Positions 30,076 through 57,565 of a DNA stretch of 64,000 nucleotides are shown one piece after another. The stretch lies in IMG/VR virus record IMGVR_UViG_3300045988_183789. The stretch is one strand, 5' to 3'. This DNA is from a virus. How positions within the stretch are numbered: the stretch's first letter is position 1; every line of letters starts with the position of its first letter. The notes beneath the pieces are model-generated. The model searched no databases, was not told the origin of the DNA, and was given only the letters and a program-made list of their open reading frames with translations. Both the position numbers and the translations under genes were made by a program.

Positions 30076-30104
30076 TTGCCAAAACGTGCGAATTGGCAAC
30101 AATA
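30076..30104 (+). promoter_or_regulatory. GCGAATTG-box promoter, copy i
   Basis: TTGCCA aaacGTGCGAATTGgca ACAATA. Confidence 0.5.
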
Positions 30105-30165
30105 TCCATTGCAATGGTTGTCACATTATAACTTTTTCGCAAAATATCAGCAAAGGTGTGATACA

Positions 30166-30600
30166 GTGACAGACGCAAAAAGAATCACAAGCTTATCGGC
30201 TGCCATTTTGCTCGCCGCGCAGTTGTTTACTCCTTTCATACCGGCGGCTTACGCAGATGATAAGAATGGACAGAATACAACATCAATTGCGACCTCCGAA
30301 ACAGCAATGCAAAGCAGCCTTGAAGAAGACAAAGAAGCAGACATCAAACTTGAAAGCGAGGACGGCTCGGCTGCCGATTTCTTTGCTTGCATCAATGGTG
30401 ACTTGGCAAAGGTGAGCAGTACCACAGACCTGCAAGGACCCGAACACCTGGCTGGCCGGGAACGCTACTATCTAACGGCTGAACAGCTGGAAAGCGTCTA
30501 CGCACCGTTTGGCTTTGCTGCCGAGACATGTAGAAGAAAATGCAGAGAACGTAAATCAGGATGTACTCGCAGCCTACAAAAAAGATGCTGGAGCTTATAA
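30166..30600 (+). CDS. Secreted hypothetical protein
   Basis: RBS AAAGGTG with a GTG start. The signal-like N-terminus ends in AAYADD. Confidence 0.4.
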   Translation: MTDAKRITSLSAAILLAAQLFTPFIPAAYADDKNGQNTTSIATSETAMQSSLEEDKEADIKLESEDGSAADFFACINGDLAKVSSTTDLQGPEHLAGRERYYLTAEQLESVYAPFGFAAETCRRKCRERKSGCTRSLQKRCWSL

Positions 30601-30964
30601 GGTGTTGGCACTGACGACCTGTGCCTCGGACTACTCCAATGCCAGAACCGTCATCATTACTCTGCTTCAGGAATGAGTTAAAGTTAAAAGTGTATCTCAT
30701 TTGATTTTGTATACCACATGTGGTATAATACAATATAGAGGGCAAGGACAAAGACCCGACGGTGCTGTCGATGACAGCCATGCAAACCGGGGCAGGGTAC
30801 AGTGCCTGAGTTCTCACAACATTTGCCGTCCCTCTCCGACGGTTCTATCTGCTTTCATGCAGTCACCTCGTTCCTTACATCCTTTCTTTATCCTTTCTTA
30901 CGGACCCCGCTGCTTTTCCCCGCAAAGAGCAGCGGGGATTCTTTTTGCTTATCGAAATAATGTC

Positions 30965-30992
30965 TTGTGCATTTGTGCGAATTGCGTAGAAT
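30965..30992 (+). promoter_or_regulatory. GCGAATTG-box promoter, copy a
   Basis: TTGTGC atttGTGCGAATTGcg TAGAAT, then TTAGAATTGTAC. Confidence 0.5.
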
Positions 30993-31235
30993 TAGAATTG
31001 TACAAGCGGAATTGGGTTCCGGCGGGTCTTAACCTCTTCCTGCCGGTGTGTACGACGTGGTTTCCTCTCACTTTGACATGTTTGCTTTCCGCTTGTATTC
31101 ACCCCATCGGCTTTTTCCTGGGCCGGTGGTTCATATAAAAGGCTGTGGTTGCTTTTGCTTCCGCAGCTTTTTTGTTTGTATTCGCGCCTGCACAAAAGAC
31201 AGGCATTGGTTGTGATGAGCGAAAGGAGTATGAAT

Positions 31236-32927
31236 ATGGCGCTTATCATCGGGATTGTAGCAGTCCTTATTATCATCTTCGGCTTTCTGTGCTACAAGAA
31301 GGCCCCTCCGACGGAGGCTATCGTCGTGACCGGCTTTGGGTTGTCAAAGCCCAAAGTAGTATCCGGTAAAGGCACGTTTGTGCTTCCTGTCTTGCAACGA
31401 GCAGACAAACTGAACATGCGGCTTCTGAAGATTGATGTCAAGACCCCAGAAACAGGCGTTAAGACTCAGAATGGTGTCAGCCTTTGGATTGATTCTGTTG
31501 TGACGATTCAGGTTTACAGTGAGAACTCCACTGTGTTGGACGATGAGGTCAAAGCATCTGGTCTGAAGGACGCCAAGGCGTATATCATGTCCCGCCAGCA
31601 GGCAGCTATCTCGAACTTCTTGGGCATGAACGAGCAGGGCATCAACGACAAGGTCAATGACGTTCTGCAGGGCAACCTGCGTGAGATTGTTTCCGACATG
31701 ACCGTTGACCAGATTCTGACAAACCGCAAGCAGATGGCACTGAGCGTCATTGAGAACGCTCGTCCAGACCTCGCCAAGATGGGCCTTGAGGTCGTGACCT
31801 TCAATGTTCAAGACATTAGGGACGCGATTGATGCACAGGGCCACAATCACGGTGTCATCGAAGCTATCGGTATCGAGCAGGAAGAACTGGTGAAGAAGCA
31901 GGCTGAGATTGCTCGTGCCCAGGCTGCTCGCGATGTGGCATGTGCAAAAGCAGATGCTGAGATGGCAGCGAACGCCAAGGAAGTTGAAGCCCAGACCGCT
32001 ATCGCACAGCGCAACAACGAGTTGCAGCTTGCCAAGGCAAAGCTGAAGGCAGAAGCTGACAAGGCTGCGGCCGACGCAGATGCTGCCGGTCGTATCCAGA
32101 TGAACCTCCGTGCCAAGGAAATCAAAGAAGCTGAGGCTGACGCAGAGATTGCCAAGCAGAAGAAGATGGTTGACCTTGCTGCGCAGGAAGCCGAAGTCCA
32201 GCAGCGTAAACTGGACGCAGAAGTCCGTAAACAGGCTGATGCAGACCTTTATCGCCGTCAGGAAGAAGCAGAAGCCAAAAAATACGAGGCGGAGCGTGCA
32301 GCCGAAGCACAAAAGTTCGCTAAGCAGCAGGAAGCAGAAGGCATCGAGATGGTCGGTAAGGCTGAGGCTGAAGCCATTCGCCAGAAAGGTCTGGCTGAGG
32401 CAGAGGCTATGAAGCAGAAAGCCGAAGCCTACAAACAGTACAACGACGCAGCTGTTGCCGAAATGCTTATCAAGGTTCTGCCTGACATCGCCAAGAGCGT
32501 GGCCCAGCCCCTGTCCAGCATCGACAAGGTGTCTATCATCGGTGGTGATGCTTCCGGCGTATCCGGTGTGTCTGGTAACGTCCCGGTGCTCATGGCCCAG
32601 ACCATGCAGACGGTGAAGGAGGCAACCGGTATCGACATGGGTGAGATTGTTCGTGCCAATAGCATCCAGGCTAAGACGGACCGCAACATCCATATCGATG
32701 GTGTGGAGTTGGACGAGCCAAAATCTCACATCACCTCCGAGCGTGTCGAAGATGGTTGGATGTTCCATGAGAAGGACCCTATCACCGGCGAAGATAAAAC
32801 TTCTTTCCGTCCCGATTTTACGGACGAGGAAAAGGCCATCATGGATGCTCACGCCAAGGCAGCTGAGAAGCATGCTACCACCAACAAAACCAATCCGTAT
32901 AAAAAGAAGACGGGCCCCAACAAATAA
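31236..32927 (+). CDS. Flotillin-like SPFH/band-7 protein
   Basis: RBS AAAGGAG. N-terminal TM helix, SPFH core, long Ala/Glu/Lys-rich coiled coil. Confidence 0.75.
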   Translation: MALIIGIVAVLIIIFGFLCYKKAPPTEAIVVTGFGLSKPKVVSGKGTFVLPVLQRADKLNMRLLKIDVKTPETGVKTQNGVSLWIDSVVTIQVYSENSTVLDDEVKASGLKDAKAYIMSRQQAAISNFLGMNEQGINDKVNDVLQGNLREIVSDMTVDQILTNRKQMALSVIENARPDLAKMGLEVVTFNVQDIRDAIDAQGHNHGVIEAIGIEQEELVKKQAEIARAQAARDVACAKADAEMAANAKEVEAQTAIAQRNNELQLAKAKLKAEADKAAADADAAGRIQMNLRAKEIKEAEADAEIAKQKKMVDLAAQEAEVQQRKLDAEVRKQADADLYRRQEEAEAKKYEAERAAEAQKFAKQQEAEGIEMVGKAEAEAIRQKGLAEAEAMKQKAEAYKQYNDAAVAEMLIKVLPDIAKSVAQPLSSIDKVSIIGGDASGVSGVSGNVPVLMAQTMQTVKEATGIDMGEIVRANSIQAKTDRNIHIDGVELDEPKSHITSERVEDGWMFHEKDPITGEDKTSFRPDFTDEEKAIMDAHAKAAEKHATTNKTNPYKKKTGPNK

Positions 32928-32971
32928 TTGAGGTTCATCACACAGCCCATTGAGGGCTGCTGCCGCTCAAC

Positions 32972-33032
32972 GAAGACAGCCTCCACGGGGCAAGCGGCGG
33001 GCAACGGGAAAGGCTCCTGGCAAATAGTCTTC
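32972..33032 (+). other. Structured-element family copy 2
   Basis: GAAGACAGCCTCCACGGGGCAAGCGGCGGGCAAC ... GGCAAATAGTCTTC. The closing helix is GAAGAC / GTCTTC. Confidence 0.45.
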
Positions 33033-33058
33033 AGAACGAAAAAGAAGGGGAGAAAGCC

Positions 33059-38056: not shown

Positions 38057-38090
38057 GCAGCCGCTTCCTTCGGGAGGTGGCTGCTTTTTT
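38057..38090 (+). terminator. Rho-independent terminator
   Basis: GCAGCCGCTTCC-TTCG-GGAGGTGGCTGC followed by TTTTTT. Confidence 0.65.
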
Positions 38091-38105: not shown

Positions 38106-38134
38106 TTGATGAATTGTGCGAATTGCAGATAATA
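38106..38134 (+). promoter_or_regulatory. GCGAATTG-box promoter, copy b
   Basis: TTGATG aattGTGCGAATTGcag ATAATA. Confidence 0.5.
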
Positions 38135-42008: not shown

Positions 42009-42013
42009 AATAC

Positions 42014-42051
42014 GCTGTCACCTCGAACTCCGGGGTGGCAGCCTTCTTTTT
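42014..42051. terminator. Bidirectional terminator hairpin between convergent genes
   Basis: GCTGTCACC ... GGTGGCAGC followed by CTTCTTTTT. Confidence 0.5.
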
Positions 42052-42054
42052 GTC

Positions 42055-44473: not shown

Positions 44474-44487
44474 AAGGAGAACTCAAC

Positions 44488-45488: not shown

Positions 45489-45513
45489 TGATATTGTAAG
45501 ATAAATAATTGTA

Positions 45514-45555: not shown

Positions 45556-45586
45556 GCGTTAATACGTATTCTGGAGGATTCAAACC

Positions 45587-48415: not shown

Positions 48416-49035
48416 TGGGAAATAGCGATACTAAGATGAAGCCAAGACATAACGACGTCCATAAATCCTTGAAAGAACGTAATGACGCGATTTACCGAGA
48501 TTATATGGATGGCGTGTGTGTCGTGGATTTGGCTGATAAATACGGGGTGACTGGCTATAGGATTGTACAAATCCTTCGCTCAGACCCCAAATACGGTTTG
48601 GAAAAGACGCGCTTAAACTGGCAGAAAAACACACAGGCAAAGCGTGCCAGGAACAAGAAAATCTACGAAGATTACATAAACGGTGTGCCTTACATCAAAA
48701 TTGCCGAAAAGTGGGGCATGACTAGCAGCGGCATTCAAGCAATCGCAAAGAAGTACCAAAAAGACCTCGAAATCAACTTCGAGAGAACCGTTCGCTCTGC
48801 ACCCAAAACAAAGAAATCCGAAATCGATTGGGCCGAGAGGAAAAGACGATTGATTGCCCAAGCCAGAGCTATTCCAAATCAGTCTCTATCGAATCTTGCT
48901 AAGCAATATGGATTAACGCCAAATGAAGCAAGACAAATTTTAAGAGAAGCGGGCATTATCAAGTGCCCTCGCAACGACTTGAGTGATGAAGCTCTTTGGG
49001 CCGGAATCGGAGGCAGCTATGACGACATCTATTAA
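48415..49035 (+). CDS. Protein with three tandem sigma-70-region-4-like HTH repeats
   Basis: Three ~55-aa repeats, each I/L-YxDY..G.....IA.KYG....I.QI. Paralog of the gene at 57587. Confidence 0.5.
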   Translation: MGNSDTKMKPRHNDVHKSLKERNDAIYRDYMDGVCVVDLADKYGVTGYRIVQILRSDPKYGLEKTRLNWQKNTQAKRARNKKIYEDYINGVPYIKIAEKWGMTSSGIQAIAKKYQKDLEINFERTVRSAPKTKKSEIDWAERKRRLIAQARAIPNQSLSNLAKQYGLTPNEARQILREAGIIKCPRNDLSDEALWAGIGGSYDDIY

Positions 49036-49303
49036 GTTTGCAAAGGCTGTAACTGAGTCTAATCTTCAAGGAAATACGGACAAAAACTTTTCGCGTGAGG
49101 AAACCGCCAGCATCCAACACACAAACGCAGCCATCCGCCAGGCGGTCAGGCAGCATGCCGTTTCACGTGCTAAAAGAACACGGCACACATCCATGCAAGT
49201 GGCTCTTGATGCAGAACGTGACGCTTTGCTGCAGGCAGCCAAGAGCCATGCTCAGCAGTATGCAGAGTCAGAGGCTGCGGTAAAGGACTGCATTGTTAAA
49301 TAG
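49019..49303 (+). CDS. Hypothetical protein
   Basis: RBS GGAGG. Confidence 0.4.
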   Translation: MTTSIKFAKAVTESNLQGNTDKNFSREETASIQHTNAAIRQAVRQHAVSRAKRTRHTSMQVALDAERDALLQAAKSHAQQYAESEAAVKDCIVK

Positions 49304-49319
49304 GGCAGGGAGGTACAGA

Positions 49320-49604
49320 ATGGTCAAAATTTACGGTTCGAGCGATGACCTCGTCTGCTTGGACAATTCAAATTATGCAGTGGATGAAATCGGCTGCTAT
49401 GATGTGGCCGGTGTCTGGCTCTTTCTGGAAGATGACACGGTTTTGTTCGTCCACTACACCGACGGTATCTGGCGCATTGATGTGGAGCAAGAAGGCTCTA
49501 TGCCTTATGAACACCATGTTTGCGCTGGAACGGATGAGGACGACTATAGTGATGTTTTCCTGACAGAATCTGATGTCACAAACCATGAAATTGCCTACAA
49601 ATAA
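49320..49604 (+). CDS. Hypothetical protein
   Basis: RBS GGGAGG. Confidence 0.4.
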   Translation: MVKIYGSSDDLVCLDNSNYAVDEIGCYDVAGVWLFLEDDTVLFVHYTDGIWRIDVEQEGSMPYEHHVCAGTDEDDYSDVFLTESDVTNHEIAYK

Positions 49605-49617
49605 AGGAGAAAACGAC

Positions 49618-50124
49618 ATGAACCTTTCAAAAATCAAGATGATGTTCTTCGATTTTGATGATACACTGCTTATCCACTATCGGGAACATCGGCTCGATGC
49701 TACGGGAGAGGCCCACAGGGAACGGCTCCTGCGCCGGGAAAAAGAAACGAAGGACGGCTACCGAGTCTTTGATGAAATCGGTGAGCCCAATGACCTCATC
49801 CAGCACTTCCTTGAGAGCTGCCCCGACATTCCGAAATACTGCATCTCTTTTGTGCAGAACAGCATCACGCTGCCGTTCAAAAAACAATGGCTTGAAATGC
49901 ACTTTCCGGGCCGGTTCCATGACATGCTTGGCACATCCAGCCCGGAACGCAAAGTGACCGTTATGCAGATGTTTGCCAAAGTCTACGGCTTAGAGCCTTC
50001 CCAAATTCTCTTTGTGGATGACTACTTCAAGGCGGTTGACGCGGCCGCTGATGCAGGGTTCTGCGCCATGAGTACACAGGAACTGGTCAATCGGCAGTAT
50101 TCTGCGGAAAAGCCCGTCATCTAA
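49618..50124 (+). CDS. HAD-superfamily hydrolase
   Basis: RBS AAAGGAGA. Motif I FDFDDTL. Confidence 0.6.
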   Translation: MNLSKIKMMFFDFDDTLLIHYREHRLDATGEAHRERLLRREKETKDGYRVFDEIGEPNDLIQHFLESCPDIPKYCISFVQNSITLPFKKQWLEMHFPGRFHDMLGTSSPERKVTVMQMFAKVYGLEPSQILFVDDYFKAVDAAADAGFCAMSTQELVNRQYSAEKPVI

Positions 50125-50201
50125 TCCATCTCATTCATCGACAAATCACAGTAAATATAAATCAGTCATATTACATGCCTATAAGGCAGGAAGGAATCAC
50201 A

Positions 50202-51068
50202 ATGGGACGTTATAATTTTGAACAGCATACTCGTGACGGCTATGTCGTTACGCCCGCACTGGCAAAGCAGTGGCTGGAGAAGAACACCAATAACCGCAAC
50301 GTGAACTTTGCCAAGGTCAAGAAAATGGCAAAGGATATGCGCGAGGGTCACTGGGACACGACTCATCAGGGCATTGCGATTGCCACCGATGGCACGCTGG
50401 TCGATGGGCAGCACCGTCTGATGGCGGTGGTAGAGTCCGGCGTTACAGTTCGTATGAACGTGACCTTCAATGCGCCCAAGTCTCAGCACATCGATTCCGG
50501 CAACAGCCGCTCGATGGCGAACCGTGTCCAGATGTCAGACTATGACATGAGTTGGACCGACAAAACAATTCTCTCGGCAGCCAACCTTATCGGCCGTATG
50601 TTTTCCGGCTCCAATTTAAGCCATGAGGAAGACCTGACCGAGTGGCTCGCCAAGTATCGGCCTCAGATTGAGATGGTCACGAGCCATATTAAGCGTGGTT
50701 CGATGCGTGGCCTGTCTTCAGCCGGTATCACCGCCGCCATGATTGTGGCAGCGATGAACGATGTGCCCGAAGCCTATATCGCCAAGTTTCTCGAAGTTTT
50801 CTATAGCGGTTTCACGACCAATGAAGCCGAGCACTATGCCGTCATGCTGCGTGATGACCTGATTCGCAACAACACTTCCAAAACCGGCACACAGTATGCA
50901 AAGTATGCCTTCTACCGTACTGCGAACCGACTGAACCAGTATTATAAGACTGCCACCGGCCAGCGTGTCGCAAAGCGCATCAATGACGGTGATTTCCCGT
51001 ACAACATCTACGACGCCACGGGACGTATCGTAAAGCCTGAAGCCAAAAAAGCCAAGAAAAAGGCGTAA
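50202..51068 (+). CDS. ParB/Srx-superfamily DGQHR-domain protein
   Basis: RBS GGAAGGAA. Contains the VDGQHRL motif. Confidence 0.55.
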   Translation: MGRYNFEQHTRDGYVVTPALAKQWLEKNTNNRNVNFAKVKKMAKDMREGHWDTTHQGIAIATDGTLVDGQHRLMAVVESGVTVRMNVTFNAPKSQHIDSGNSRSMANRVQMSDYDMSWTDKTILSAANLIGRMFSGSNLSHEEDLTEWLAKYRPQIEMVTSHIKRGSMRGLSSAGITAAMIVAAMNDVPEAYIAKFLEVFYSGFTTNEAEHYAVMLRDDLIRNNTSKTGTQYAKYAFYRTANRLNQYYKTATGQRVAKRINDGDFPYNIYDATGRIVKPEAKKAKKKA

Positions 51069-51086
51069 CCTGAAAGGAGAACCCCC

Positions 51087-51206
51087 ATGAAGAAGTTTCT
51101 GAAAATGGTAATGGTAGCCGGTATCGCAGCTGCCGTTGCGCATCTTGTCTCTTTGCACAAAAAGCGTAAAAAGATGATTCAGCTGGGCCATGATATTCTG
51201 AGGTAA
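51087..51206 (+). CDS. Small membrane peptide, 39 aa
   Basis: Strong RBS AAAGGAGA lies 6 nt upstream of the ATG. One TM helix. Confidence 0.4.
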   Translation: MKKFLKMVMVAGIAAAVAHLVSLHKKRKKMIQLGHDILR

Positions 51207-51212
51207 ACACAA

Positions 51213-51878
51213 GTGGCTAAAACACAATTGACCCGCGAAATTGAGGTGGCGCTCCATAACTGGAATCCAACCAACTACGGCGGGTATAGAACGGATACAT
51301 TCCGCCAGGGCTTCGATGCTCTTGAAGTGCCTGTGGAGTGCGGCACGACACGCTCTGGGCTTGTAGATTTCGTCCGTGTGCAGGAGTGTTTTACTTCTGA
51401 GACAAAGTGTGGAACTTGCAAATTGTCGATGTACTCCGACGAGGATAAAGACCTCGTTATGCCGTCTATCGAACAATGGACGCAGGAAGTGAATTGTCCG
51501 AAGGACATCTCCAACTGGAATTTTCGCAACGAACCTTGCACCGAGCGGTTCTGTAGGTTGTATAAGACACAGCATCTCTACACGATTGATACCGTCATCA
51601 CCTGTGTAGAAATTAAAATCTCAGTAGGGGACTTTCACTCTGACCACGGGCACAACTTTGTAGGGCATTGCAACTACTATGCTATGCCGACGGCTCTCTA
51701 TAAAAAAGTGAAAGGCGAAATTCCCGATGGCATCGGTGTCCTGATTTACTATGACGGTGAAAGCACCTATGGTATCCGCAAGAAGGTAGAGTGCAAACCG
51801 CACCAACTCTCAGAAGAAACGCAAAAATGGCTTATCATGTCCGTTGCCAAAAAGCTGCCTCGATTCGTTAAGCATTGA
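51213..51878 (+). CDS. Hypothetical protein, possibly a PD-(D/E)XK-fold nuclease
   Basis: GTG start with RBS GAGGTAA. GLVDFVRV ... VEIKIS loosely resembles D..(D/E)xK. Confidence 0.4.
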   Translation: MAKTQLTREIEVALHNWNPTNYGGYRTDTFRQGFDALEVPVECGTTRSGLVDFVRVQECFTSETKCGTCKLSMYSDEDKDLVMPSIEQWTQEVNCPKDISNWNFRNEPCTERFCRLYKTQHLYTIDTVITCVEIKISVGDFHSDHGHNFVGHCNYYAMPTALYKKVKGEIPDGIGVLIYYDGESTYGIRKKVECKPHQLSEETQKWLIMSVAKKLPRFVKH

Positions 51879-51920
51879 GGCAGCTTTGATTTTTACTAAC
51901 GACCAGAAAGGACTTGTTAT

Positions 51921-52694
51921 ATGAGACGGACAAAAGCAGTGATAACTGCTGTGGCAGTAGGCGTACTGACCTTTGCCACAGCTTGCGCGAGTAGTGCATC
52001 TACTCCCGTATCAGTACCACCAGACTCTTTTGCCAGCACAACGGAATCAGCGGCAACGGCTGAGACAGCGAATGATGCGATTTATCTAAGCACCGACAGC
52101 ATCCCGGAACCCACACCTCATGCTCCTTTGTCGAAACCAACAGCTGCACCAGAGCCTACTCCTACACAGACGCCTGAACCGACAGAAGCACCAATACCGG
52201 TCCCTACAGATACTCCGGCTCCACTCACGACCAGCGTATGGGGTGATGTGGTGCCTGCCACGTATGGCGCTTCCTACGGGACAGTCTCATGCAGCAGCGT
52301 AGGTATCAACGCTTCCCTTATCTGGGGCGATGACCAAGCTCTCCTCGACAGCCGCAGCGGTGTATATCAGTACGCAGGCTCCTATCAGGTAGGCTACGGT
52401 GGTTGTCATCTTCTTTGCTCCCATAACGACAGCACTTTGGCTTTGCTTCAATACGTAAGTATTGGTGACGAATTTGTGGTCACTACAGACTACGGACAAT
52501 ACGTATATACGGTAGATTCTGCCAGGCCGGGAACGGTAACGGCAGACGCGGGCACTGTGGTGGCCGATGATGGAACCATTCTTGTGGACCTTTCGAACAC
52601 CACCGACCGGCTCGTGATGTATACCTGCTATCCGTTCGGATACTACCAAACCACAAACCAACGCTATGTCGTCAGAGCCACGCTGTCTGCTTAG
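51921..52694 (+). CDS. Secreted sortase-like transpeptidase
   Basis: Signal peptide, Pro/Thr-rich linker, and C-terminal LVMYTCYP (TLxTC-like) with an Arg 15 residues downstream. Confidence 0.45.
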   Translation: MRRTKAVITAVAVGVLTFATACASSASTPVSVPPDSFASTTESAATAETANDAIYLSTDSIPEPTPHAPLSKPTAAPEPTPTQTPEPTEAPIPVPTDTPAPLTTSVWGDVVPATYGASYGTVSCSSVGINASLIWGDDQALLDSRSGVYQYAGSYQVGYGGCHLLCSHNDSTLALLQYVSIGDEFVVTTDYGQYVYTVDSARPGTVTADAGTVVADDGTILVDLSNTTDRLVMYTCYPFGYYQTTNQRYVVRATLSA

Positions 52695-52706
52695 GAGTGC
52701 CAAAAG

Positions 52707-52928
52707 ATGTCAAAGGAAAAACTACTGAAAATCTGGAAGGTCACAAAGACCATTATCATTCCGCTCACCATTGCTTTGGCGGACGTTCTTTTTTGGGCAA
52801 AGGCGATGACTGACCCCACTTGGCTTATTCTTTATCCTCGCCATATAGCACTTGGATGTATCTGCAGCCTGGGTCTTATTGGGTGCTGCATTTATGCTGA
52901 CCTTAAAGTGTCCCATAACCAAAAGTGA
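52707..52928 (+). CDS. Small two-TM membrane protein
   Basis: RBS TAGGAG. Confidence 0.45.
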   Translation: MSKEKLLKIWKVTKTIIIPLTIALADVLFWAKAMTDPTWLILYPRHIALGCICSLGLIGCCIYADLKVSHNQK

Positions 52929-52933
52929 AGGCC

Positions 52934-52962
52934 TTGCCATTCCTTTCGAATTGACTACAATA
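52934..52962 (+). promoter_or_regulatory. GCGAATTG-box promoter, copy h
   Basis: TTGCCA ttcctTTCGAATTGact ACAATA, then TTGATTGTACGATAGATAC. Confidence 0.5.
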
Positions 52963-53028
52963 TTGATTGTACGATAGATACCAAACACATAAAGATGTTA
53001 CGATTTTCTATCGTTCACAATCTGTTTT

Positions 53029-53071
53029 AAGAGCGGACTTATCCCATTCCGGGGTAGGCCCGCTCTTTTTT
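53029..53071 (+). terminator. Leader hairpin plus T-tract before the MBL gene. Sequence family shared with the hairpin at 54514
   Basis: AAGAGCGGACTTATCCCATTCCGGGGTAGGCCCGCTCTT followed by TTTT. Confidence 0.55.
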
Positions 53072-53092
53072 ATTTGAAAGGAGAAATTTCCA

Positions 53093-54250
53093 ATGCAAAG
53101 CAAAAACACATTCTTGCGGAGAGCAGCGGCAGCGATTGCGGCACTCTTCACCCTCAGCTTCGCAGGCTGCGGTCAGACCCCGATTGATTCGGGTAGTCTT
53201 CCTGTATCCGGGGTCGTCTCAGAAAGTCCTGTCTCTGACAGCGAGCAGACGGCTGGCGTAACGGAAGACGGCAGCTTTACTATCCACTTCATTGATGTGG
53301 GGCAGGCGGACTCTGCTCTTGTTACCTGTGATGGGCATTCGATGCTCATTGACGGTGGCAATGTTGATGATTCTGACCTCGTATATTCTGTTCTGGAACG
53401 TGAGACAGACGGACATCTGGATTATGTTGTTGGCACGCACGCCCATGAAGACCATATCGGAGGTCTTTCCGGTGCATTCGAAGCCGTGACGGCTGATGTC
53501 ACGTATTGCCCTGTCACAGAGTACGACAGTAAAGCTTTTCGGAACTTCAAGCAGCGAGCGGAAGAAAGAGGCAACGGCCTTACGATTCCGTCGGTAGGGG
53601 ATACATTCTCCCTTGGCGATGCCGAAGTGACTGTTATCGCCGTGAACTCAGTGCCGGATGATACCAACAATACCTCCATTGTCCTACGCATCGTATATGG
53701 AGAAACCTCATTCTTGTTTACGGGTGATGCAGAAGAGCCTGCCGAAGATGTTATCCTACAGTCTGGACAAGACATCCAATCTACTGTTCTGAAGGTAGGG
53801 CATCATGGTTCTCGAACCTCCACATCCGAAGCGTTCCTCGACACAGTGAATCCAGCCTATGCTGTTATTTCCTGTGGCAAGGACAACAGCTATGGTCATC
53901 CACACGACATCACTTTGGCAAAGCTCCAGAGCAAAGACATTGAGGTTTTCAGAACTGACGAGATGGGAGACATCTACTGCACATCGGACGGTAAGGACGT
54001 CACTTTCACTTATGGCGAATATCACCAGGCGGCAGAAAGCACTACCACCGATACAGTCGAGGTCGAGGAGTCACAGCAAAAGGATACGACGGTCAGTACC
54101 TATGTCCTGAACACAAACTCTATGAAATTTCATAAGCCTGACTGCTCCGCCGTAGCTCAAATGAGCGATGCAAACCGCAAAGACTATACAGGTTCCCGCG
54201 ATGACCTAATCGAGCAGGGCTATACACCTTGCGGGTATTGCAAGCCGTAA
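53093..54250 (+). CDS. Metallo-beta-lactamase-fold lipoprotein with a Cys-rich C-terminal tail
   Basis: RBS AAAGGAGA. Lipobox LSFAGC. MBL motif GTHAHEDHIGG. C-terminal C...C..C. Confidence 0.65.
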   Translation: MQSKNTFLRRAAAAIAALFTLSFAGCGQTPIDSGSLPVSGVVSESPVSDSEQTAGVTEDGSFTIHFIDVGQADSALVTCDGHSMLIDGGNVDDSDLVYSVLERETDGHLDYVVGTHAHEDHIGGLSGAFEAVTADVTYCPVTEYDSKAFRNFKQRAEERGNGLTIPSVGDTFSLGDAEVTVIAVNSVPDDTNNTSIVLRIVYGETSFLFTGDAEEPAEDVILQSGQDIQSTVLKVGHHGSRTSTSEAFLDTVNPAYAVISCGKDNSYGHPHDITLAKLQSKDIEVFRTDEMGDIYCTSDGKDVTFTYGEYHQAAESTTTDTVEVEESQQKDTTVSTYVLNTNSMKFHKPDCSAVAQMSDANRKDYTGSRDDLIEQGYTPCGYCKP

Positions 54251-54422
54251 AGGCTATCAACTGTTCCGTTCTTGATTAGATATTAACTCATAGCAATACA
54301 AAATCTATCCAATTCTATCCAATAACCAATCCAATCTATTACTAATATGGTAAACGCGACCCTTCATCTCGAATATGACGATGCCACTCGTATCCAGTCA
54401 TTCATCCAACAAAAGCACTCGG

Positions 54423-54451
54423 TTGTCAAAATATGCGAATTGCGTAAGATA
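54423..54451 (+). promoter_or_regulatory. GCGAATTG-box promoter, copy e
   Basis: TTGTCA aaatATGCGAATTGcgt AAGATA, then AAAGTGTACGATAGATAAC. Confidence 0.5.
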
Positions 54452-54513
54452 AAAGTGTACGATAGATAACATAATCGAAAAGGCGACTTGCCCTTCGTAT
54501 TCACAATTTCGCA

Positions 54514-54553
54514 AAAAGAGCGGACTTCCCACGCGGGAGGCCCGCTCTTTTTG
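54514..54553 (+). terminator. Leader hairpin plus T-tract before the gene at 54580
   Basis: AAAGAGCGGACTTCCCACGCGGGAGGCCCGCTCTTT followed by TT. Confidence 0.55.
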
Positions 54554-54579
54554 CGTCAAAACAAAGGAGTGTATTTACC

Positions 54580-54912
54580 ATGACTAAAATTTTTACTATC
54601 GCAGCAAACGAAATCATCGGCCCATTCAGCACCGAGACGACCGTGTTGCAGTTTGAGTATGACTCTGAAAAAGCGTATGACGTTCTCACGCAAGTACGCA
54701 ACGCCGTAAAGTCTTATCTGGATACCGAAGAAGGCAAAAAGACGCTGCGACTCAACAGTGGCTACTTCAACTGGGGTGATGCGGCCGAGATTCCTGATGG
54801 CTTCTATGAGTCGTTCGGCCTTAAAAAGCTGGACGCGCCGGTTGCTGATTTGACCGTGGACTTCAACGAAGACCTGACGGCAGATGAGATTTCCGATGAG
54901 GAGGGCTACTGA
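54580..54912 (+). CDS. Hypothetical acidic protein
   Basis: RBS AAAGGAG. Confidence 0.45.
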   Translation: MTKIFTIAANEIIGPFSTETTVLQFEYDSEKAYDVLTQVRNAVKSYLDTEEGKKTLRLNSGYFNWGDAAEIPDGFYESFGLKKLDAPVADLTVDFNEDLTADEISDEEGY

Positions 54913-56345
54913 TGGCTCAGTTCAATGACATGCTTGCTCAAATCGGTGCAATGCTATCTAAGAAAGAAAATGAGCCGTTTTCCTATGAAGAGCTTGCATC
55001 GATGCTGAAAACAAGCCCTGATGCTCTTAAAACCTTTGAGGATGTCTACAAAACCCAAGTGCTGGAAAGTGGGACACTGTCTGACAATCTTCTCCAGTGG
55101 GATACCGCAACCGTAAAGGCAATGCTCGATAAGAGCGCGCCTTTTACGAAAGAGCTGGACAATCTCATTGACCAAATCGTTGCCGAGCTGATGGATGACA
55201 CCAGACTGTACATCTATGAGCCGAAACGCGGTGGTTACTACGTTCGATATTCCGCAAACCAGCATATCCTTCCGCCGGTAACGAACGAAGACCTCCAGAA
55301 GTTCCCGGAAGAACTTCGGCCACAACTGACCGGCAATCTGATGAAGATTGACATTTCGGAGCCGTCTTACAAGGTGCTGCTCAGCCACTACAAGGCGTAT
55401 CTCGATGCGAGAAGCGACCGAAACAAAGCGATGCAGTATCACATGTTCCGCCAGGGCCTCGACATTCTGGACCTCGATGACATCACATATCAGATGCTTG
55501 AAATGAATCCGAACACGATGAGCTACTGGCTGCCGCCACTGGTTGCTGCCTTGGACGGCAACAAGTTCTTCAAGGTGCCGGAGACAAAACTCTTGCATGT
55601 GCCCATCACGATGCTCCAACTCACGAGACTCGGCTTTGAGACGCTTAATCCCGTGACGAAAGCGATTGTGAACCGTTACTGCGAGAGAATCTTTCATCTG
55701 AATGAAGATGGCGACTATTTCATCAAAACTGGCACCTATTCCTCCAAGTACGAGTTCCGCAATGCCCATGTCCATGAACCTCAAGAGGTCCGTGAGATGG
55801 GCGAGTATTTCTTGTTTTTGAACCATCTGACCTGCTCTATGGCAGCACCCGGCAATGGGCATTGCTTCTACGGGGCAAATACGACCAACGAGTGGGTCGT
55901 CAGAGAGTATATCAAAGACAAGGAAGGGAACCCGACTATCTATAACGGTCTGCCGCTGCACACTGAATACCGCGTGTTTGTGGACTTCGATGCTAAGACG
56001 ATTCTCGGCGTCAGTCCGTACTGGCGCAGCGATGTGATGAAGGGGAAATTCCAGGAAGTGAGCAGTCCACAGGAACGGCACGACTACGTCATCTACCAGA
56101 TGCACGAGGATGTGCTGGAGAAGCACTACCAGGAGAGCGTTCAGGCTGTTCTGGATGAACTGAAGAAGGTCATCCCACACGTAGAGTTGACCGGGCAGTG
56201 GAGTGTTGACGTGATGCGCAACGGTGATGATTACTACATCATCGACATGGCGCTTGCTGAGAACTCTGCGCTGAGCGATTGCGTGCCTAAGAATCTGCTT
56301 CGTGCTTATCCGCAGCAGTGGCTGCCGCAAAGTCCGACGATGTAA
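54912..56345 (+). CDS. Hypothetical protein, possible ATP-grasp-like C-terminal region
   Basis: RBS GAGGAGGG. C-terminal WSVDVMRNGDDYYIIDMALAEN resembles the ATP-grasp Mg-binding strand (E-x-N). Confidence 0.4.
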   Translation: MAQFNDMLAQIGAMLSKKENEPFSYEELASMLKTSPDALKTFEDVYKTQVLESGTLSDNLLQWDTATVKAMLDKSAPFTKELDNLIDQIVAELMDDTRLYIYEPKRGGYYVRYSANQHILPPVTNEDLQKFPEELRPQLTGNLMKIDISEPSYKVLLSHYKAYLDARSDRNKAMQYHMFRQGLDILDLDDITYQMLEMNPNTMSYWLPPLVAALDGNKFFKVPETKLLHVPITMLQLTRLGFETLNPVTKAIVNRYCERIFHLNEDGDYFIKTGTYSSKYEFRNAHVHEPQEVREMGEYFLFLNHLTCSMAAPGNGHCFYGANTTNEWVVREYIKDKEGNPTIYNGLPLHTEYRVFVDFDAKTILGVSPYWRSDVMKGKFQEVSSPQERHDYVIYQMHEDVLEKHYQESVQAVLDELKKVIPHVELTGQWSVDVMRNGDDYYIIDMALAENSALSDCVPKNLLRAYPQQWLPQSPTM

Positions 56346-56369
56346 TTTTTCAAAAAGGAGAATACCACC

Positions 56370-56879
56370 ATGAGCAAAACCGTTATTCTGATGGGCAAAT
56401 CCATGCCGACCAAAGATGTCGCTGAGTTTCTTTACACGGAGACTCGCGACAAAAACTACCAGGCTGAGACCGGCTGTGCATACGCCAAGTTCAACAGTTG
56501 CAAGATTGCTGAACCCGGCACCAAATGGGCGGAGTTGACTCCTTCCCAGAAGATGCAGGCCATGTCTATGTCCCTGTTCCAGATGCTGGGCAATGGTGAT
56601 GACAGGGGAGAACCTATCCTCATCAAGACCGCCAACACCACCAAAGAAGTCTGGTGCCCGTTTTACGCAGACAAGGTCGCCATCGAAAGCGCGAATGTCT
56701 TCGAGCGTGTTTACGCAGAGGTGAAAGCTGCTTATGAGGAAAACAGCGCTTTTGCCAAATTCGACACCATGAACCACGAGGAGAAGATGTTCGAAATCTC
56801 GTTGTATGTCATGCACAACTTCGAGAACATCCTCAAGAAAATTGAAGCCATTCCCGGTGTACAAGCCGGAAAATACTAA
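56370..56879 (+). CDS. Hypothetical protein
   Basis: RBS AAAAGGAGA. Confidence 0.45.
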   Translation: MSKTVILMGKSMPTKDVAEFLYTETRDKNYQAETGCAYAKFNSCKIAEPGTKWAELTPSQKMQAMSMSLFQMLGNGDDRGEPILIKTANTTKEVWCPFYADKVAIESANVFERVYAEVKAAYEENSAFAKFDTMNHEEKMFEISLYVMHNFENILKKIEAIPGVQAGKY

Positions 56880-56891
56880 TCACATTGCATA

Positions 56892-56923
56892 AGAGGGGCT
56901 GCCGTCAGGCGGCTCCTCTTTTT
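56892..56923 (+). terminator. Rho-independent terminator
   Basis: AGAGGGGCTGCC-GTCA-GGCGGCTCCTCT followed by TTTT. Confidence 0.6.
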
Positions 56924-56950
56924 GCTTTTCATTGCGAATTGAATACAATA
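56922..56950 (+). promoter_or_regulatory. GCGAATTG-box promoter, copy f
   Basis: TTGCTT ttcatTGCGAATTGaat ACAATA. Confidence 0.5.
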
Positions 56951-56973
56951 AAGTCATGTGACGCACAAGTGAG

Positions 56974-57450
56974 GTGAGTAAATTGGAAAACGTCAAAATT
57001 ATTACGCCGTACGGAGAAGTTATCAGTATTCGTACTTTCATCGAGTGGGAGTATAACTGTGGCAAGACTGATTTTCAGCCAAACGAGCGTTATCCTTTGT
57101 GGGTCACTGTGCCGGTTGAAGAAAAGCTTGGCTATATTGCTTGCAGCCTATTTGGTGACCTTGCAAATTTTGATGACTATGAAGGCAAAATCGGCATCAC
57201 CGATGGGAACTCAACACGATATTTCTTCTTCACAAAGAAGAACTGCGATACGGAAATTCTGCAAGCATTGACGGCAATGCTCAATGTTTTGTATACAAGC
57301 AGCGAGGAAATGCTTCTTTCTGAATCCGGCTACACTTTTGAGTCATTGAGTCTGAATCAACGATTCGACACAATTGCTCGCTACATCGAAGCAAATCTTG
57401 AAGTGTGCTTGCTTATGTTGGCACATATTCCATATATGGAATGGAAATAA
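56974..57450 (+). CDS. Hypothetical protein
   Basis: GTG start inside GAGGTGAGT; exact start uncertain. Confidence 0.4.
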   Translation: MSKLENVKIITPYGEVISIRTFIEWEYNCGKTDFQPNERYPLWVTVPVEEKLGYIACSLFGDLANFDDYEGKIGITDGNSTRYFFFTKKNCDTEILQALTAMLNVLYTSSEEMLLSESGYTFESLSLNQRFDTIARYIEANLEVCLLMLAHIPYMEWK

Positions 57451-57470
57451 AACCGTTTTATGTTGCCTTC

Positions 57471-57499
57471 TTGCACGTTTGTGCGAATTGAGTAAACTG
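57471..57499 (+). promoter_or_regulatory. GCGAATTG-box promoter, copy g
   Basis: TTGCAC gtttGTGCGAATTGag TAAACT, then GAGTATTGTAGACC. Confidence 0.45.
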
Positions 57500-57535
57500 A
57501 GTATTGTAGACCAAAAAGTGCATTGACGACCACTA

Positions 57536-57565
57536 AAGCAGGTTCTTTTAAGGGCCTGCTTTTTT
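57536..57565 (+). terminator. Leader hairpin plus T-tract before the gene at 57587
   Basis: AAGCAGG ... CCTGCTT followed by TTTTT. Confidence 0.5.

Follow-up and report, generated by a model that had tools for sequence, protein, structure and literature searches.

Promoters with a conserved box in the spacer

The window, a 64,000-nucleotide stretch of IMG/VR virus record IMGVR_UViG_3300045988_183789, contains 11 promoters with the layout TTGnnn-N5-T(G/T)CGAAynG-N2-TAnAAT. All 11 are intergenic, lie on the + strand, and are spread over 30 to 63 kb. A weight matrix trained on 105 related promoters, all from other contigs, returned at least 20 bits at exactly these + strand sites, and no other site on either strand of the window reached 8 bits. 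The composite pattern itself had 7 matches in the window, compared to an expectation of 0.09. The genes of the element also all lie on one strand.

The most upstream member is promoter a (30076 to 30103; TTGCCA-aaacg-TGCGAATTG-gc-AACAAT; 24.3 bits), whose -35 adjoins a terminator at 30045 to 30070 and whose predicted start, near 30111, opens a short leader without a terminator. Promoter b (30965 to 30992; TTGTGC-atttg-TGCGAATTG-cg-TAGAAT; 45.9 bits) is predicted to start near 31000 (GUACAAGCGG...), and promoter c (38106 to 38133; TTGATG-aattg-TGCGAATTG-ca-GATAAT; 37.0 bits), with a terminator (38057 to 38084) adjoining its upstream side, runs straight into a ribosome-binding site. So does the promoter at 42620 to 42647 (TTGTTC-atccg-TTCGAATTG-ag-TATCAT; 32.5 bits), which serves the gene at 42680 to 43291. 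Promoter d (43288 to 43315; TTGAAC-atccg-TGCGAATTG-aa-TAGAAT; 45.0 bits) overlaps the stop codon of the gene upstream and has a predicted start near 43323 (GUAAGCUAAAUAA), while promoter e (45461 to 45488; TTGACC-atctg-TGCGAATTG-cc-TACAAT; 50.2 bits) lies downstream of a terminator at 45385 to 45415 and has its predicted start near 45496 (GUAAGAUAAAUAA). Promoters f (52934 to 52961; TTGCCA-ttcct-TTCGAATTG-ac-TACAAT; 35.9 bits) and g (54423 to 54450; TTGTCA-aaata-TGCGAATTG-cg-TAAGAT; 30.2 bits) are followed by promoter h (56922 to 56949; TTGCTT-ttcat-TGCGAATTG-aa-TACAAT; 20.3 bits), which sits directly behind a terminator at 56887 to 56925 and has a leader without one. Promoter i (57471 to 57498; TTGCAC-gtttg-TGCGAATTG-ag-TAAACT; 43.4 bits) drives a gene for a triple-helix-turn-helix (triple-HTH) protein, and the last promoter (62382 to 62409; TTGCCG-aatca-TGCGAACCG-cg-TATACT; 28.7 bits) drives a cluster of tRNA genes (Thr, Asn, Met, and Asp; 62455 to 63260).

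A preliminary description of this DNA had listed at least nine canonical copies and two variants. The nine, promoters a to i, were each found where it had placed them, and the class is indeed strand specific, with a nonpalindromic box at a fixed position between -35 and -10. It had overlooked the members at 42620 and 62382, and its variants, at 15865 and about 12690, scored below 8 bits each and are not members; we rejected the former as a plain TTGAGA-N17-TATAAT promoter. By our parse, the spacer measures 16 nt, not about 17 nt, and the box ends 2 nt rather than 3 nt before TAnAAT. The downstream ATTGTA(C/A) block is present, not as a separate element but as an A-rich discriminator followed by a pyrimidine(-1)/purine(+1) start site, the predicted start being the 8th nucleotide after the -10.

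The box is an asymmetric 9-bp site, TGCGAAynG, held in rigid register at about -24 to -16, with an information content of about 16 bits and no dyad symmetry. Its conserved core is TGCGAA; the final three bases (TTG in the window) vary among relatives. Judged from the DNA, the module is a promoter class proper to the element family and apparently of the host sigma-A type, with a TTGC.. -35, a 16-nt spacer, and a TAnAAT -10. Use of sigma-A fits because the -35 TTG and the -10 A2/T6 are invariant, the start bears a Y(-1)R(+1) signature, and the leader's 5'-terminal stem begins exactly at +1. At the -35, TTGC is favored over TTGA (79 of 111 promoters). A box promoter occurs once per ∼3 kb, usually with a terminator alongside, and such promoters head essentially all units across 30 to 63 kb, including those of regulators and tRNAs; the type IV secretion system (T4SS) operon has a single one, at its head just upstream of the window. 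This is not the late or transfer regulon proposed in the preliminary description.

Conservation among relatives

The motif is specific to a diverged family of ∼230- to 250-kb conjugative megaplasmids that is very common in human-gut Firmicutes, and it occurs in at least 120 stretches among IMG/VR contigs of this family. By comparison, bacterial genomes totaling 596 Gb gave 79 scattered single matches versus about 70 calculated to occur by chance. Since matches there are at about chance level, the motif is no host-wide signal.

We collected 52 relatives via a protein, so that the sample was unbiased for the motif. Exact boxes in these relatives were on the gene strand and in promoter context in 34 of 34 cases, with none on the opposite strand. 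TGCGAA was invariant and the three bases after it were variable. The spacing TTG-8-TGCGAA-5-TAnnnT held in all 74 unbiased cases, and variants of ±1 were not seen. Orthologous promoters retained the box even where the downstream protein was only 31 to 39% identical and the leaders could not be aligned.

Leader terminators and a new leader RNA

Hairpins with T-tracts, described earlier in the leaders, were confirmed as genuine terminators behind six promoters (b, d, e, f, g, and i); none is present behind the other five (a, c, 42620, h, and the tRNA promoter). In the leader of b (31000 to 31180, + strand; z = -5.5), the 5'-terminal GUACAAGCGG pairs with CCGCUUGUA ∼100 nt downstream, and a hairpin at 31104 to 31129 is followed by a terminator at 31137 to 31172 with its T-tract, a layout retained in relatives. 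The + strand terminator of d (43335 to 43366; hairpin 43335 to 43357; z = -3.6) has a stem from about +13 followed by UUUCUUUUU and is the sole terminator of the gene upstream. That of e (45511 to 45556, + strand; hairpin 45511 to 45548; -17.1 kcal/mol) lies ∼30 nt before the start of a helicase gene at 45587. That of i (57535 to 57568, + strand; hairpin 57535 to 57562) lies ∼20 nt upstream of the triple-HTH gene and has an equivalent in all diverged lineages. A consensus promoter scan of 42000 to 61000, which covers d, e, f, g, and i, listed no sigma-70-like promoter in the 25 to 40 nt or so between hairpin and start codon, in agreement with the preliminary description. With strong terminators between many box promoters and the next ribosome-binding site, the downstream genes need read-through.

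Across the family, 50 of 111 nonredundant promoters (45%) have a strong leader terminator, and the remaining ∼55% lead directly into a ribosome-binding site or tRNA. These terminators are conserved and show compensatory changes (8 of 12 pairs; 92% paired). The upstream unit has no terminator other than the leader terminator in 29 of 110 cases, and at 21 of 110 promoters there are terminators both upstream and in the leader. Strong terminators also adjoin start codons within operons, with no promoter after them (3292 to 3312, 51851 to 51887, and 58797 to 58816), and the T4SS operon, at more than 30 kb, has at least 4 internal terminators.

Two of the window's six terminator leaders, those of f and g, are copies of R1, a structured leader RNA of ∼100 nt that is absent from Rfam and that we regard as new. 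Copy f (52969 to 53071, + strand; 71.4 bits and E = 3.8e-9 with the R1 model; z = -5.7) has GUACGAUAGAUACC at +1, a 5'-terminal stem, UUCACAAU, and a terminator at 53029 to 53067 with a U-tract. Copy g (54457 to 54553, + strand; 77 bits, E = 5e-10; z = -6.6) reads GUACGAUAGAUAAC ... UUCACAAUUUCG, then a terminator at 54517 to 54548 and a U-tract. Relatives totaling 462 kb contain 108 R1 matches, every one on the gene strand. Its single-stranded motifs GAUAGAUAMC and UUCACAAUU are invariant around variable hairpins; its 5' closing stem shows no covariation, the 5' strand being invariant. The T4SS operon begins with R1, which also heads very short units that are ended by the next terminator.

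A -10-like hexamer (TACGAT or TAAGAT) at +2 to +7 occurs preferentially in terminator-bearing leaders. Scored as TAnnnT (TACGAT, TAAGAT, TAAGGT, and others), leaders with and without a terminator numbered 29 and 7 when the hexamer was present and 21 and 54 when it was not, a ratio inflated by shared leader ancestry. Several leader classes unrelated to one another show the association. In lambda PR', the sigma-dependent pause element occupies the position that the hexamer has here. Conservation of the hexamer is not strict, and AGAUAMC behind it is better conserved.

Interpretation

We put at roughly 40% the probability that the box is a docking site on host sigma-A promoters for a factor that the element encodes, forming a plasmid-wide regulon with the triple-HTH protein as candidate factor and attenuation as a second layer. 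An element-encoded DNA-binding protein would read the box while RNA polymerase occupies or tries the same promoter, and this single factor would cover essentially every transcription unit, no fewer than 11 in the window and, just upstream of it, the T4SS operon head. It would most likely act at initiation. Because the promoters look intrinsically competent, we lean toward a global repressor or modulator that would mediate plasmid-wide silencing and release, with a co-activator as the alternative. At ∼16 bits and without dyad symmetry, the box would be unusual as a stand-alone repressor operator, and a factor binding jointly with RNA polymerase fits better. Attenuation would be separable, acting where about half of the box promoters transcribe a leader with a conserved intrinsic terminator. 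We infer binding of the box by a protein, that protein's identity, and the sign of its effect alike.

The best candidate is the 174-amino-acid triple-HTH protein encoded at 57587 to 58111 (+ strand), which has weak Pfam matches to Mor, HTH_23, and HTH_28. Its gene is conserved and syntenic, being the first behind a box promoter and terminator in every lineage, a position typical of autoregulated regulators. The only proteins that a model of it resembles are tandem-HTH proteins whose monomers bind asymmetric sites, and with three HTH units in tandem it would, as a monomer, be suited to such a site. Against it, the recognition helices of its orthologues show only moderate conservation, whereas the box is invariant. 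A paralogue of 207 amino acids is encoded at 48412 to 49035 (+ strand), within the promoter e operon. Among the trans factors suggested earlier, the triple-HTH candidate gained circumstantial support; the zinc-ribbon protein gained no support, nor did the XRE-like candidate, which has a generic HTH domain and nothing more, or the supposed BlaI-like product of 29494 to 29907, which has no significant Pfam match.

A regulator of initiation does not on its own account for the frequent strong terminators after promoters and the intra-operon terminators right before start codons. These features have a place in a lambda-Q-type reading, in our judgment rather unlikely, by which a factor on the spacer box boards RNA polymerase at a sigma-dependent promoter-proximal pause and makes it terminator resistant. 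Box-initiated transcripts alone would then pass leader and intra-operon terminators, and stray transcription would be stopped. The asymmetric spacer box in rigid phase with the -10 and start, the conserved leader terminators and the hexamer accompanying them, the promoterless terminators before start codons, the T4SS operon with its one box promoter, and the single gene strand all favor this reading, as does the frequency of processive antitermination among Gram-positive conjugative elements (PMC8191782, PMC11658703). However, no homologue of Q, NusG/RfaH, sigma, or another antiterminator was found among the proteins of the window, which covers roughly one-quarter of the ∼240-kb element, and ∼55% of promoters keep the box without a leader terminator or -10-like element. 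The imperfect conservation of the hexamer relative to AGAUAMC, and the ancestry behind the hexamer-terminator ratio, weaken it further. Whereas lambda has a single PR' for a 26-kb late operon, units here are short, and the spacing of promoters at ∼3 kb, normally with a terminator for each, implies that units still end at terminators. Of the lambda-Q-type layout in the preliminary description, the spacer box, leader terminators, and hexamer stand, but no factor of this kind was found in the window, 5 of the 11 promoters there lack leader terminators, and units are short; its alternative, in which every promoter contains an operator, has at least as much support.

For the hairpins only, R1 may itself be the regulator, as a small cis-acting antitermination RNA (put/EAR/canT/conAn2-like) or an attenuator switched by one RNA-binding factor, leaving the box as an independent initiation signal; this we consider doubtful, though less so than the Q-type reading. 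Its many gene-strand copies, its invariant single-stranded motifs, and its position before the internally terminated T4SS operon argue for such a role, and Gram-positive conjugation operons are known that begin with RNA-based antitermination elements or leader attenuators (PMC8191782, PMC11658703, PMC13401043). At ∼100 nt versus 260 to 600 nt, however, R1 is much shorter than conAn2 and canT, its 5' domain and terminator can form side by side in the predicted folds, which show no obvious mutually exclusive antiterminator, and both its use on very short units and the lack of covariation in its closing stem count against this role. Improbable in our view is a dedicated element-encoded sigma or sigma-remodeling system, whether reading an ECF-like GAAC/GAAT-N16-(T/C)GTA or appropriating sigma-A as MotA/AsiA do. 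GAAY-N16-TGTA in box promoters does have the spacing of ECF promoters, and the preference for TTGC and the spacer of 16 rather than 17 nt also fit. Yet the sigma-A-like -35 TTG and -10 A2/T6 are invariant with the box (34 of 34 and 74 of 74), the 5'-terminal stem begins at the G of GTAC, upstream of an ECF-type start if TGTA is the -10, and Sigma70_r2/r4 was not found among window proteins. We give equally poor odds to the absence of any trans factor, with one expression cassette copied by duplication or gene conversion, a spacer that tunes RNA polymerase binding, and hairpins that are ordinary operon-end terminators and 5' stabilizers. Similarity does span promoter, leader, and terminator up to the ribosome-binding site, as many as 5 cassettes lie within 9.4 kb, some leader terminators (the 29 of 110) are all that ends the upstream unit, and in Firmicutes, stems at the extreme 5' terminus are known as a stabilizing design. 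But TGCGAA is invariant while flanking spacer, last three -35 bases, and leaders vary freely, a position-specific conservation that holds across lineages at ∼31% protein identity, and sigma-A is not known to read 6 to 9 specific base pairs at -24 to -16. Where terminators lie both upstream and in the leader, the latter is more than the end of the previous operon.

For the docking-site reading, one promoter design across nearly all transcription units points to one plasmid-encoded controller of the whole element. A related megaplasmid, pMP7017 of Bifidobacterium, offers a precedent in a plasmid-specific 34-bp motif over the -10 of 19 promoters, which its authors read as a transcription-factor site (PMC10832533).

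Box promoters in the window

The preliminary description had reported a recurrent promoter with a fixed box in the spacer between its -35 and -10 elements. These box promoters proved to be real. The motif TGCGAATTG has nine exact matches, always on the + strand, and eight of them lie in the layout that had been described; the ninth, at 60572, is intragenic and lacks promoter context. The composite pattern TTG-N10-GTGCGAATTG-N3-ANAATA, searched across the window with up to three mismatches, gave 7 matches against 0.09 expected. When ten sites were aligned, the TTG of the -35, the box (TGCGAAynG, with TGCGAA as its core) and the A and T of the -10 were invariant, and the adjacent bases were variable.

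To score the window, we used a weight matrix trained on 105 non-redundant promoters, all from related contigs and none from the window itself. It returned exactly 11 sites of at least 20 bits, all on the + strand, and everything else on either strand scored below 8 bits. The -35 elements of these sites start at 30076, 30965, 38106, 43288, 45461, 52934, 54423, 56922 and 57471 (promoters a to i, in that order) and at 42620 and 62382, so that all 11 fall between 30 and 63 kb. With the same matrix, no box promoter was found in the T4SS region (1 to 30 kb of the window). The nine canonical sites listed previously were all recovered; the promoters at 42620 and 62382 had been missed, and two supposed variants at 12690 and 15865 are not members by the weight matrix. 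The promoter at 62382 drives a cluster of four tRNAs (Thr-UGU, Asn-GUU, Met-CAU and Asp-GUC; 62455-63260), and tRNAs are preceded by box promoters in relatives too.

The megaplasmid and its relatives

Nearly all genes of the window are carried on the + strand. Pfam searches identified a type IV coupling protein (4658-6829) and a VirB4/TraG-like ATPase (9799-12507), together with an M23 peptidase, a sortase, a Y-family polymerase, a flotillin, NADAR, HNH nucleases, an AAA ATPase and two paralogues with three HTH repeats each. GC content is 48%, and Shine-Dalgarno sites are strong. No near-identical DNA match was found in the annotated phage and plasmid records searched; relatives in annotated collections were seen at the protein level only, in Bifidobacterium and Lactococcus megaplasmids and SPbeta-like Staphylococcus phages. 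An unchanged copy of one window protein is encoded by 227-248-kb contigs in many human-gut assemblies, and 484 blocks of the collection index it. Conservation within the family is highest (73-99% identity) for the gene of a 477-aa protein without Pfam domains (54912-56345). The closest annotated relatives of this protein belong to Bifidobacterium conjugative megaplasmids, including pMP7017 (~40% identity over 95%), and more distant ones to the Lactococcus megaplasmids and SPbeta-like Staphylococcus phages; identities across these groups are 27-46%. Based on the 227-248 kb gut contigs and the relatives of the 477-aa protein, sequence comparison places the window in a large conjugative megaplasmid of gut Firmicutes, whose family contigs are filed as viral in IMG/VR.

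One 227-kb metagenomic contig (L202) is a natural deletion variant in which window position ~2066 is joined to ~57123, leaving it without the coupling protein, VirB4 and ~55 kb of cargo. Throughout the window, long antisense ORFs of up to 636 aa overlap real + strand genes, for example at 54954-56864 (-). These are a compositional effect and not evidence for genes, and naive longest-ORF calling fails in the window.

Specificity and conservation of the box

An exact scan with the pattern TTG-N8-TGCGAATTG-N2-TANAAT matched at least 120 stretches of IMG/VR contigs, many contigs having several matches, and the matching contigs are diverged relatives that share 64-80% nucleotide identity across their common genes. 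The same pattern gave 79 single matches in 596 Gb of bacterial and archaeal genomes, where ~70 are expected by chance. Since such a number is at chance level and the matches come from unrelated phyla, the box is not a host-wide promoter feature.

To avoid circularity, we fetched 52 loci by means of the 477-aa protein, a sample that is unbiased for the motif. Each of the 34 exact boxes in these loci has a promoter context and lies on the gene strand, the opposite strand having none; a further 90 sites have one or two mismatches and full promoter context, again with none on the opposite strand. The TGCGAA core is invariant in these loci, and the next three bases vary (TTG, CCG, CGG, CTG, TGG, CAG and others). 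At every unique TGCGAA with a TTG and a TAnnnT nearby (74 of 74), the flanking gaps are 8 nt and 5 nt, with no variant of plus or minus 1. The box is also kept at orthologous promoters whose downstream proteins share 31-39% identity and whose leaders cannot be aligned, which rules out recent copying alone as the source of the similarity. As judged from these comparisons, the box motif is specific to the megaplasmid family and under selection.

Promoter anatomy and start site

The family consensus consists of a T-rich upstream stretch, TTGC..A-N3-(G)TGCGAAynG-(ca)-TAnAAT and an A-rich discriminator. The promoters are of sigma-A type: TTG and the A2/T6 of the -10 are present at 34 of 34 exact-box sites and 74 of 74 sites with TGCGAA in context, and the spacer is constantly 16 nt. 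Downstream of the -10 there is a sequence signature, with a pyrimidine at position 7 (76/86) and a purine at position 8 (81/86). The transcript is predicted to begin with G/A-U-A, which would place the box at about -24 to -16, and the 5' stem of the leader begins at this predicted start, the G of GTAC being the first base of the 5'-terminal stem. A block ATTGTA(C/A) had been described as a second conserved element and read as part of a lambda-Q-type layout. Because of the signature at positions 7 and 8, we assign it to the discriminator and start-site region, and a role as a second -10 or general pause element is ruled out.

Several known elements were considered for the box itself. The spacing of GAAY-N16-TGTA suits an ECF reading, but the sigma-A elements are invariant and the 5' arm of the leader (GUACG..., or GUACAAGCGG in b) would precede the start, and we rejected an ECF-type promoter. 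By inspection, an extended -10 or TRTG motif fails as well, since the TG is one base off register. Spo0A (TGTCGAA), LexA/Cheo box (CGAAC-N4-GTTCG), Rex (TTGTGAA-N4-TTCACAA), cre and CodY operators offer half-site likeness at best, and none of them fits. Inspection also revealed no antisense promoter with conserved spacing in the leader.

A -10-like TAnnnT at +2..+7 occurs in 36 of 111 family promoters; the majority lack it, and it is not strictly conserved. Promoters with this hexamer (TACGAT, TAAGAT) divide 29:7 with versus without a leader terminator, compared to 21:54 when the hexamer is absent.

Leader terminators

Terminator-like hairpins had been described in the leaders of these promoters. 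A strong hairpin with a U-tract before the start codon was confirmed for 6 of the 11 window promoters and is lacking in the other 5. The hairpins lie on the + strand at 31137-31172 (b, where a second hairpin precedes), 43335-43357 (d), 45511-45548 (e), 53029-53067 (f), 54517-54548 (g) and 57535-57562 (i). Fold z-scores for the six segments range from -1.6 to -6.6, with entire leaders scored for five and only the 3' part (31100-31185) for b. For d, e, f, g and i the hairpin ends ~25-40 nt before the start codon. The earlier statement that this leaves no room for another promoter held up, as a consensus scan of 42000-61000 found none in these five gaps. The d and e leaders are a minimal form, in which GUAAG(A/C)UAAAUAA is immediately followed by the terminator.

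Across the family, a leader terminator follows 50 of 111 non-redundant promoters (<80% identical), compared to 13% of random windows that contain a terminator. The other promoters lead directly into a ribosome-binding site or tRNA, so the leader terminator is frequent but optional. A predicted downstream terminator, as in a Q module, is found in 6/11 window leaders and 50/111 family leaders, and compensatory changes accompany it. A terminator also lies just 5' of the -35 in 56 of 110 promoters, and 21 of 110 have both the upstream and the leader terminator.

R1, a repeated leader RNA

A conserved leader RNA of ~100 nt, which we call R1, is predicted to be transcribed from promoters f and g as well as from a quarter of the family promoters. 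It starts at +1 with GUACGAUAGAUA(A/C)C and continues with one or two variable hairpins; CGUAC then closes a stem with the 5' end and is followed by single-stranded AAUUCACAAUUU and a terminator whose 5' arm, GCRGACUU, is unusually conserved. Pairing in the terminator helix reaches 92%, and 8 of its 12 pairs show compensatory changes. For the 5' closing stem the figure is 87%; this stem cannot covary because its 5' strand is invariant, and it is backed by differing extensions in f (ACGAUAGA:UCUAUCGU) and by a comparable stem of 10-12 bp in the b-type leader (GUACAAGCGG:CCGCUUGUAC). RNAalifold recovered the terminator alone. A covariance model of R1 identified two copies in the window and 108 copies in 462 kb of unbiased relatives, on the gene strand only and with up to five per 9.4 kb. 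At L255:224-9232 and similar loci, the full cassette of box promoter, R1 leader, terminator and conserved RBS region TTTTTGCGTCnAAnACAAAAAGGAG is present five times in 9.4 kb, which suggests spread through duplication or gene conversion.

When the window was searched against Rfam 15, the 4 tRNAs alone reached the gathering threshold. A relaxed search of the leaders gave as its best hit the L20 leader, with 23 bits against a threshold of 58.7, and no family matched R1. R1 would be a new and very abundant class of cis-regulatory RNA and a candidate entry for RNA family databases. We also considered a leader peptide. One subclass has an SD-ATG, and its frame is broken by a 1-nt indel between close relatives (CGTACAATTCAC vs CGTACATTCAC), which places the conservation at the nucleotide level. 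No antisense or complementary RNA partner for the conserved leader motifs was found in the window.

Terminators inside operons

Strong intrinsic terminators were also found inside apparent operons, at 3292-3312 (12 nt before an ATG), 6841-6868, 19838-19873, 25815-25845, 51851-51887 and 58797-58816. Their predicted stabilities range from -11 to -29 kcal/mol, and some lie 12-34 nt before the next start codon. Because no promoter follows these, the genes beyond them depend on read-through. The sibling contig L202 carries, at 455-600, a box promoter (TTGACGAACCGTGCGAACAGAATAAAAT) together with an R1 leader and terminator, ~7 kb upstream of the point that corresponds to window position 1. They precede a 153-aa ORF without Pfam matches, a RecD2-like helicase, a T4SS pilin and a protein of 1566-1673 aa. 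No box promoter was found in the 21 kb from the RecD2-like helicase to past VirB4. Given this distance behind the head promoter, the T4SS genes appear to form one long operon, with a box promoter at its head and several terminators to be crossed.

What may read the box

Because the box is invariant, asymmetric and rigidly phased, a sequence-specific reader in fixed register with RNA polymerase appears to be needed, and neither sigma-A alone nor descent seems able to account for it. Since the -35 and -10 are good, box promoters should fire unaided. The simplest model, to which we assign a probability of about 40%, is an element-encoded initiation regulator, a repressor or modulator, that would read the box and hold all units under one control. 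By analogy, this logic would match the global regulons of conjugative plasmids. The best candidate for the reader is the triple-HTH protein encoded at 57587-58111, for several reasons. A tblastn search of the fetched loci found full-length orthologues in every lineage, always as the first gene behind a box promoter and in constant order (box promoter, 80-160-nt leader with terminator, gene). A paralogue (48412-49035) is located in another box operon, and the fold suits asymmetric sites. In its predicted structure (pLDDT 78), the protein looks like generic tandem-HTH DNA binders only, Mos1, CENP-B and IstA among them; a structure search gave no significant match and nothing beyond a tandem HTH DNA binder. 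The recognition helices are only moderately conserved.

The preliminary description had favored antitermination of the lambda-Q type, which we consider a serious rival, if an unlikely one. Its asymmetric spacer element and leader terminators were borne out, and it is the only model that explains terminators both in leaders and inside operons; however, box promoters recur every ~3 kb beside terminators, as though these truly bound units. It alone explains why TACGAT/TAAGAT at +2..+7 goes together with leader terminators, although the hexamer is not strictly conserved and the box is equally present where terminator or pause-like hexamer is absent. It is likewise alone in explaining how one box promoter could serve a terminator-containing T4SS operon of >30 kb. 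No known protein component was found for it: when nearly every ORF of 60 aa or more was scanned in the window, which covers about a quarter of the element, Pfam gave no match to Q, an antiterminator, NusG/KOW or a sigma factor. A dedicated sigma factor, or sigma appropriation, is less likely still, and we hold a cassette that works free of any factor to be about as improbable.

Whatever the box does, the R1 leader itself may be an attenuator or small antitermination RNA. We regard this as possible, if less likely than not. The predicted R1 fold, however, has no obvious mutually exclusive antiterminator, unlike the zipper attenuator of pLS20 (PMC13401043). In the antitermination reading, the box would be the loading site of an antiterminator that boards at the promoter, a functional analogue of Q without sequence kinship and possibly the triple-HTH protein, which jointly with the terminators of leaders and operons would license transcription of the whole ~240-kb megaplasmid; we think this improbable. 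Read-through would then be limited to polymerases started at box promoters, with R1 possibly acting as an RNA co-determinant. If true, it would extend Q-like systems beyond proteobacterial phages for the first time and would be the first of them to occur in many copies, as a genome-wide switch.

Comparison with known systems

The element resembles the lambda PR'-qut/Q system in several respects. In both, the -35/-10 spacer of a promoter of sigma-70 type holds an asymmetric protein site (here putative), a hexamer resembling a -10 follows at about +2..+7 (AACGAT in lambda PR'; TACGAT or TAAGAT here, in a subset only), and a downstream terminator requires read-through. The two differ in that a lambdoid phage has one such promoter per genome and the element at least 12, that no Q homologue was found among the window ORFs and that half of the element promoters lack terminator and pause-like hexamer. 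Moreover, the one is a proteobacterial phage and the other a Firmicutes plasmid with short, terminator-bounded units. The T4 MotA box is also an asymmetric site of ~9 bp, upstream of a sigma-70 -10 and at constant spacing from it; it recurs in many promoters of one temporal class, and MotA is monomeric and element-encoded. The MotA box replaces the -35 (centred at -30) and requires AsiA, whereas the element retains the TTG of the -35 and has its box centred at about -20. In the IncP KorA/KorB, IncW R388 and Inc18 omega systems, one plasmid protein acts at a short site that recurs in many promoters and often overlaps the -35 and -10 or lies between them. Such global repressors are usually autoregulated and provide coordinated silencing with a burst following transfer. 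Their operators are palindromes or repeat arrays, whereas each promoter of the element has one asymmetric 9-bp box, whose register with the polymerase-binding elements never changes.

By analogy, the closest conceptual relatives appear to be these plasmid repressor networks and the motif regulon of pMP7017, the layout being also like PR'-qut and the MotA box. pMP7017 has a 34-bp plasmid-specific motif in 19 promoters, accounting for ~24% of genes and absent from host chromosomes, which its authors suggest to be a transcription-factor site (PMC10832533). This motif, AWAYATGY-TATACT-GAATATGTCCACATAAAAWA, overlaps both the -10 and the initial ~20 bases of the transcribed region, and a leader-terminator layer is not reported (PMC10832533). 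The replicons are related, with a ~40% identical 477-aa protein and similar gene content, including AAA ATPase and sortase. Each carries a plasmid-specific sequence in many promoters that is absent from hosts, but the two motifs are unlike in sequence and position, and our scan of a 41-kb stretch of pMP7017 found no TGCGAA box.

Processive antitermination in mobile elements is represented by conAn (pLS20), canT (Tn916), HK022 put and EAR; put is ~70 nt and conAn2 and canT are 260-600 nt, and these determinants are single-copy RNAs that act with or without protein (PMC8191782, PMC11658703). The conAn and canT systems share with the element a Gram-positive conjugative setting and long one-strand operons with internal terminators. 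In them, a determinant near the operon head lets polymerase pass terminators, to which R1 is comparable in position only (at the T4SS head). As described, conAn, canT and put are set apart in being neither a DNA site in a promoter spacer nor repeated before many short units. The cATT leader of pLS20-family plasmids, a single 456-nt zipper-type attenuator, has an upstream segment complementary to the terminator itself, which forms an antiterminator (PMC13401043). Both cATT and R1 serve as the leader of a conjugation operon, with a structured domain followed by an intrinsic terminator and a 5' segment that pairs with a distant 3' segment. In R1, by contrast, the partner of the 5' strand lies ~20 nt before the terminator, and the structures can coexist; R1 is also shorter, at ~100 nt, and multi-copy.

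Both processive antitermination and attenuation in leaders are already established for Gram-positive conjugative elements (conAn, canT and cATT; PMC8191782, PMC11658703, PMC13401043), where the determinants are RNA-based, present once and of much larger size. What is new is a family-wide spacer-box promoter code, coupled to a highly repeated leader-terminator RNA, in a prevalent and uncharacterised gut megaplasmid. The element is among the commonest large extrachromosomal replicons in public human-gut assemblies. To our knowledge, almost nothing is known about the control of such megaplasmids. The 28-bp promoter code allows all megaplasmid transcription units to be predicted from sequence and is a simple experimental target, with one site and one candidate protein. 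Whole-plasmid silencing and release versus promoter-licensed antitermination thereby becomes testable in gut Firmicutes. The promoter and terminator cassettes are ready parts for genetic tools in poorly tractable gut Clostridia.

Other sequence features of the window

Only two minus-strand genes in the window are convincing, an XRE-type HTH protein at 27573-27881 (-) and a 137-aa ORF at 29494-29907 (-). The pair sits just 5' of the first box promoter and adjoins a TTGACA-N17-TACAAA promoter with the inverted repeat CAGTG...CACTG (29935-30035); together these may form the regulatory switch region of the element. Nine + strand copies of AGCGTAGC lie within 3 kb (14090-17038), and the whole window has 13 against 2.7 expected. 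The cluster surrounds small ORFs and the plain sigma-A promoter at 15865, whose spacer contains a perfect palindrome (ACGAATTCGT), and looks like an iteron, oriT or partition-type repeat array. In the intergenic region at 22540-22600, 5' of the gene at 22658, there are several direct repeats of CTTGCTA/ACTTGCT and no box promoter, and these repeats may represent a separate regulatory site.
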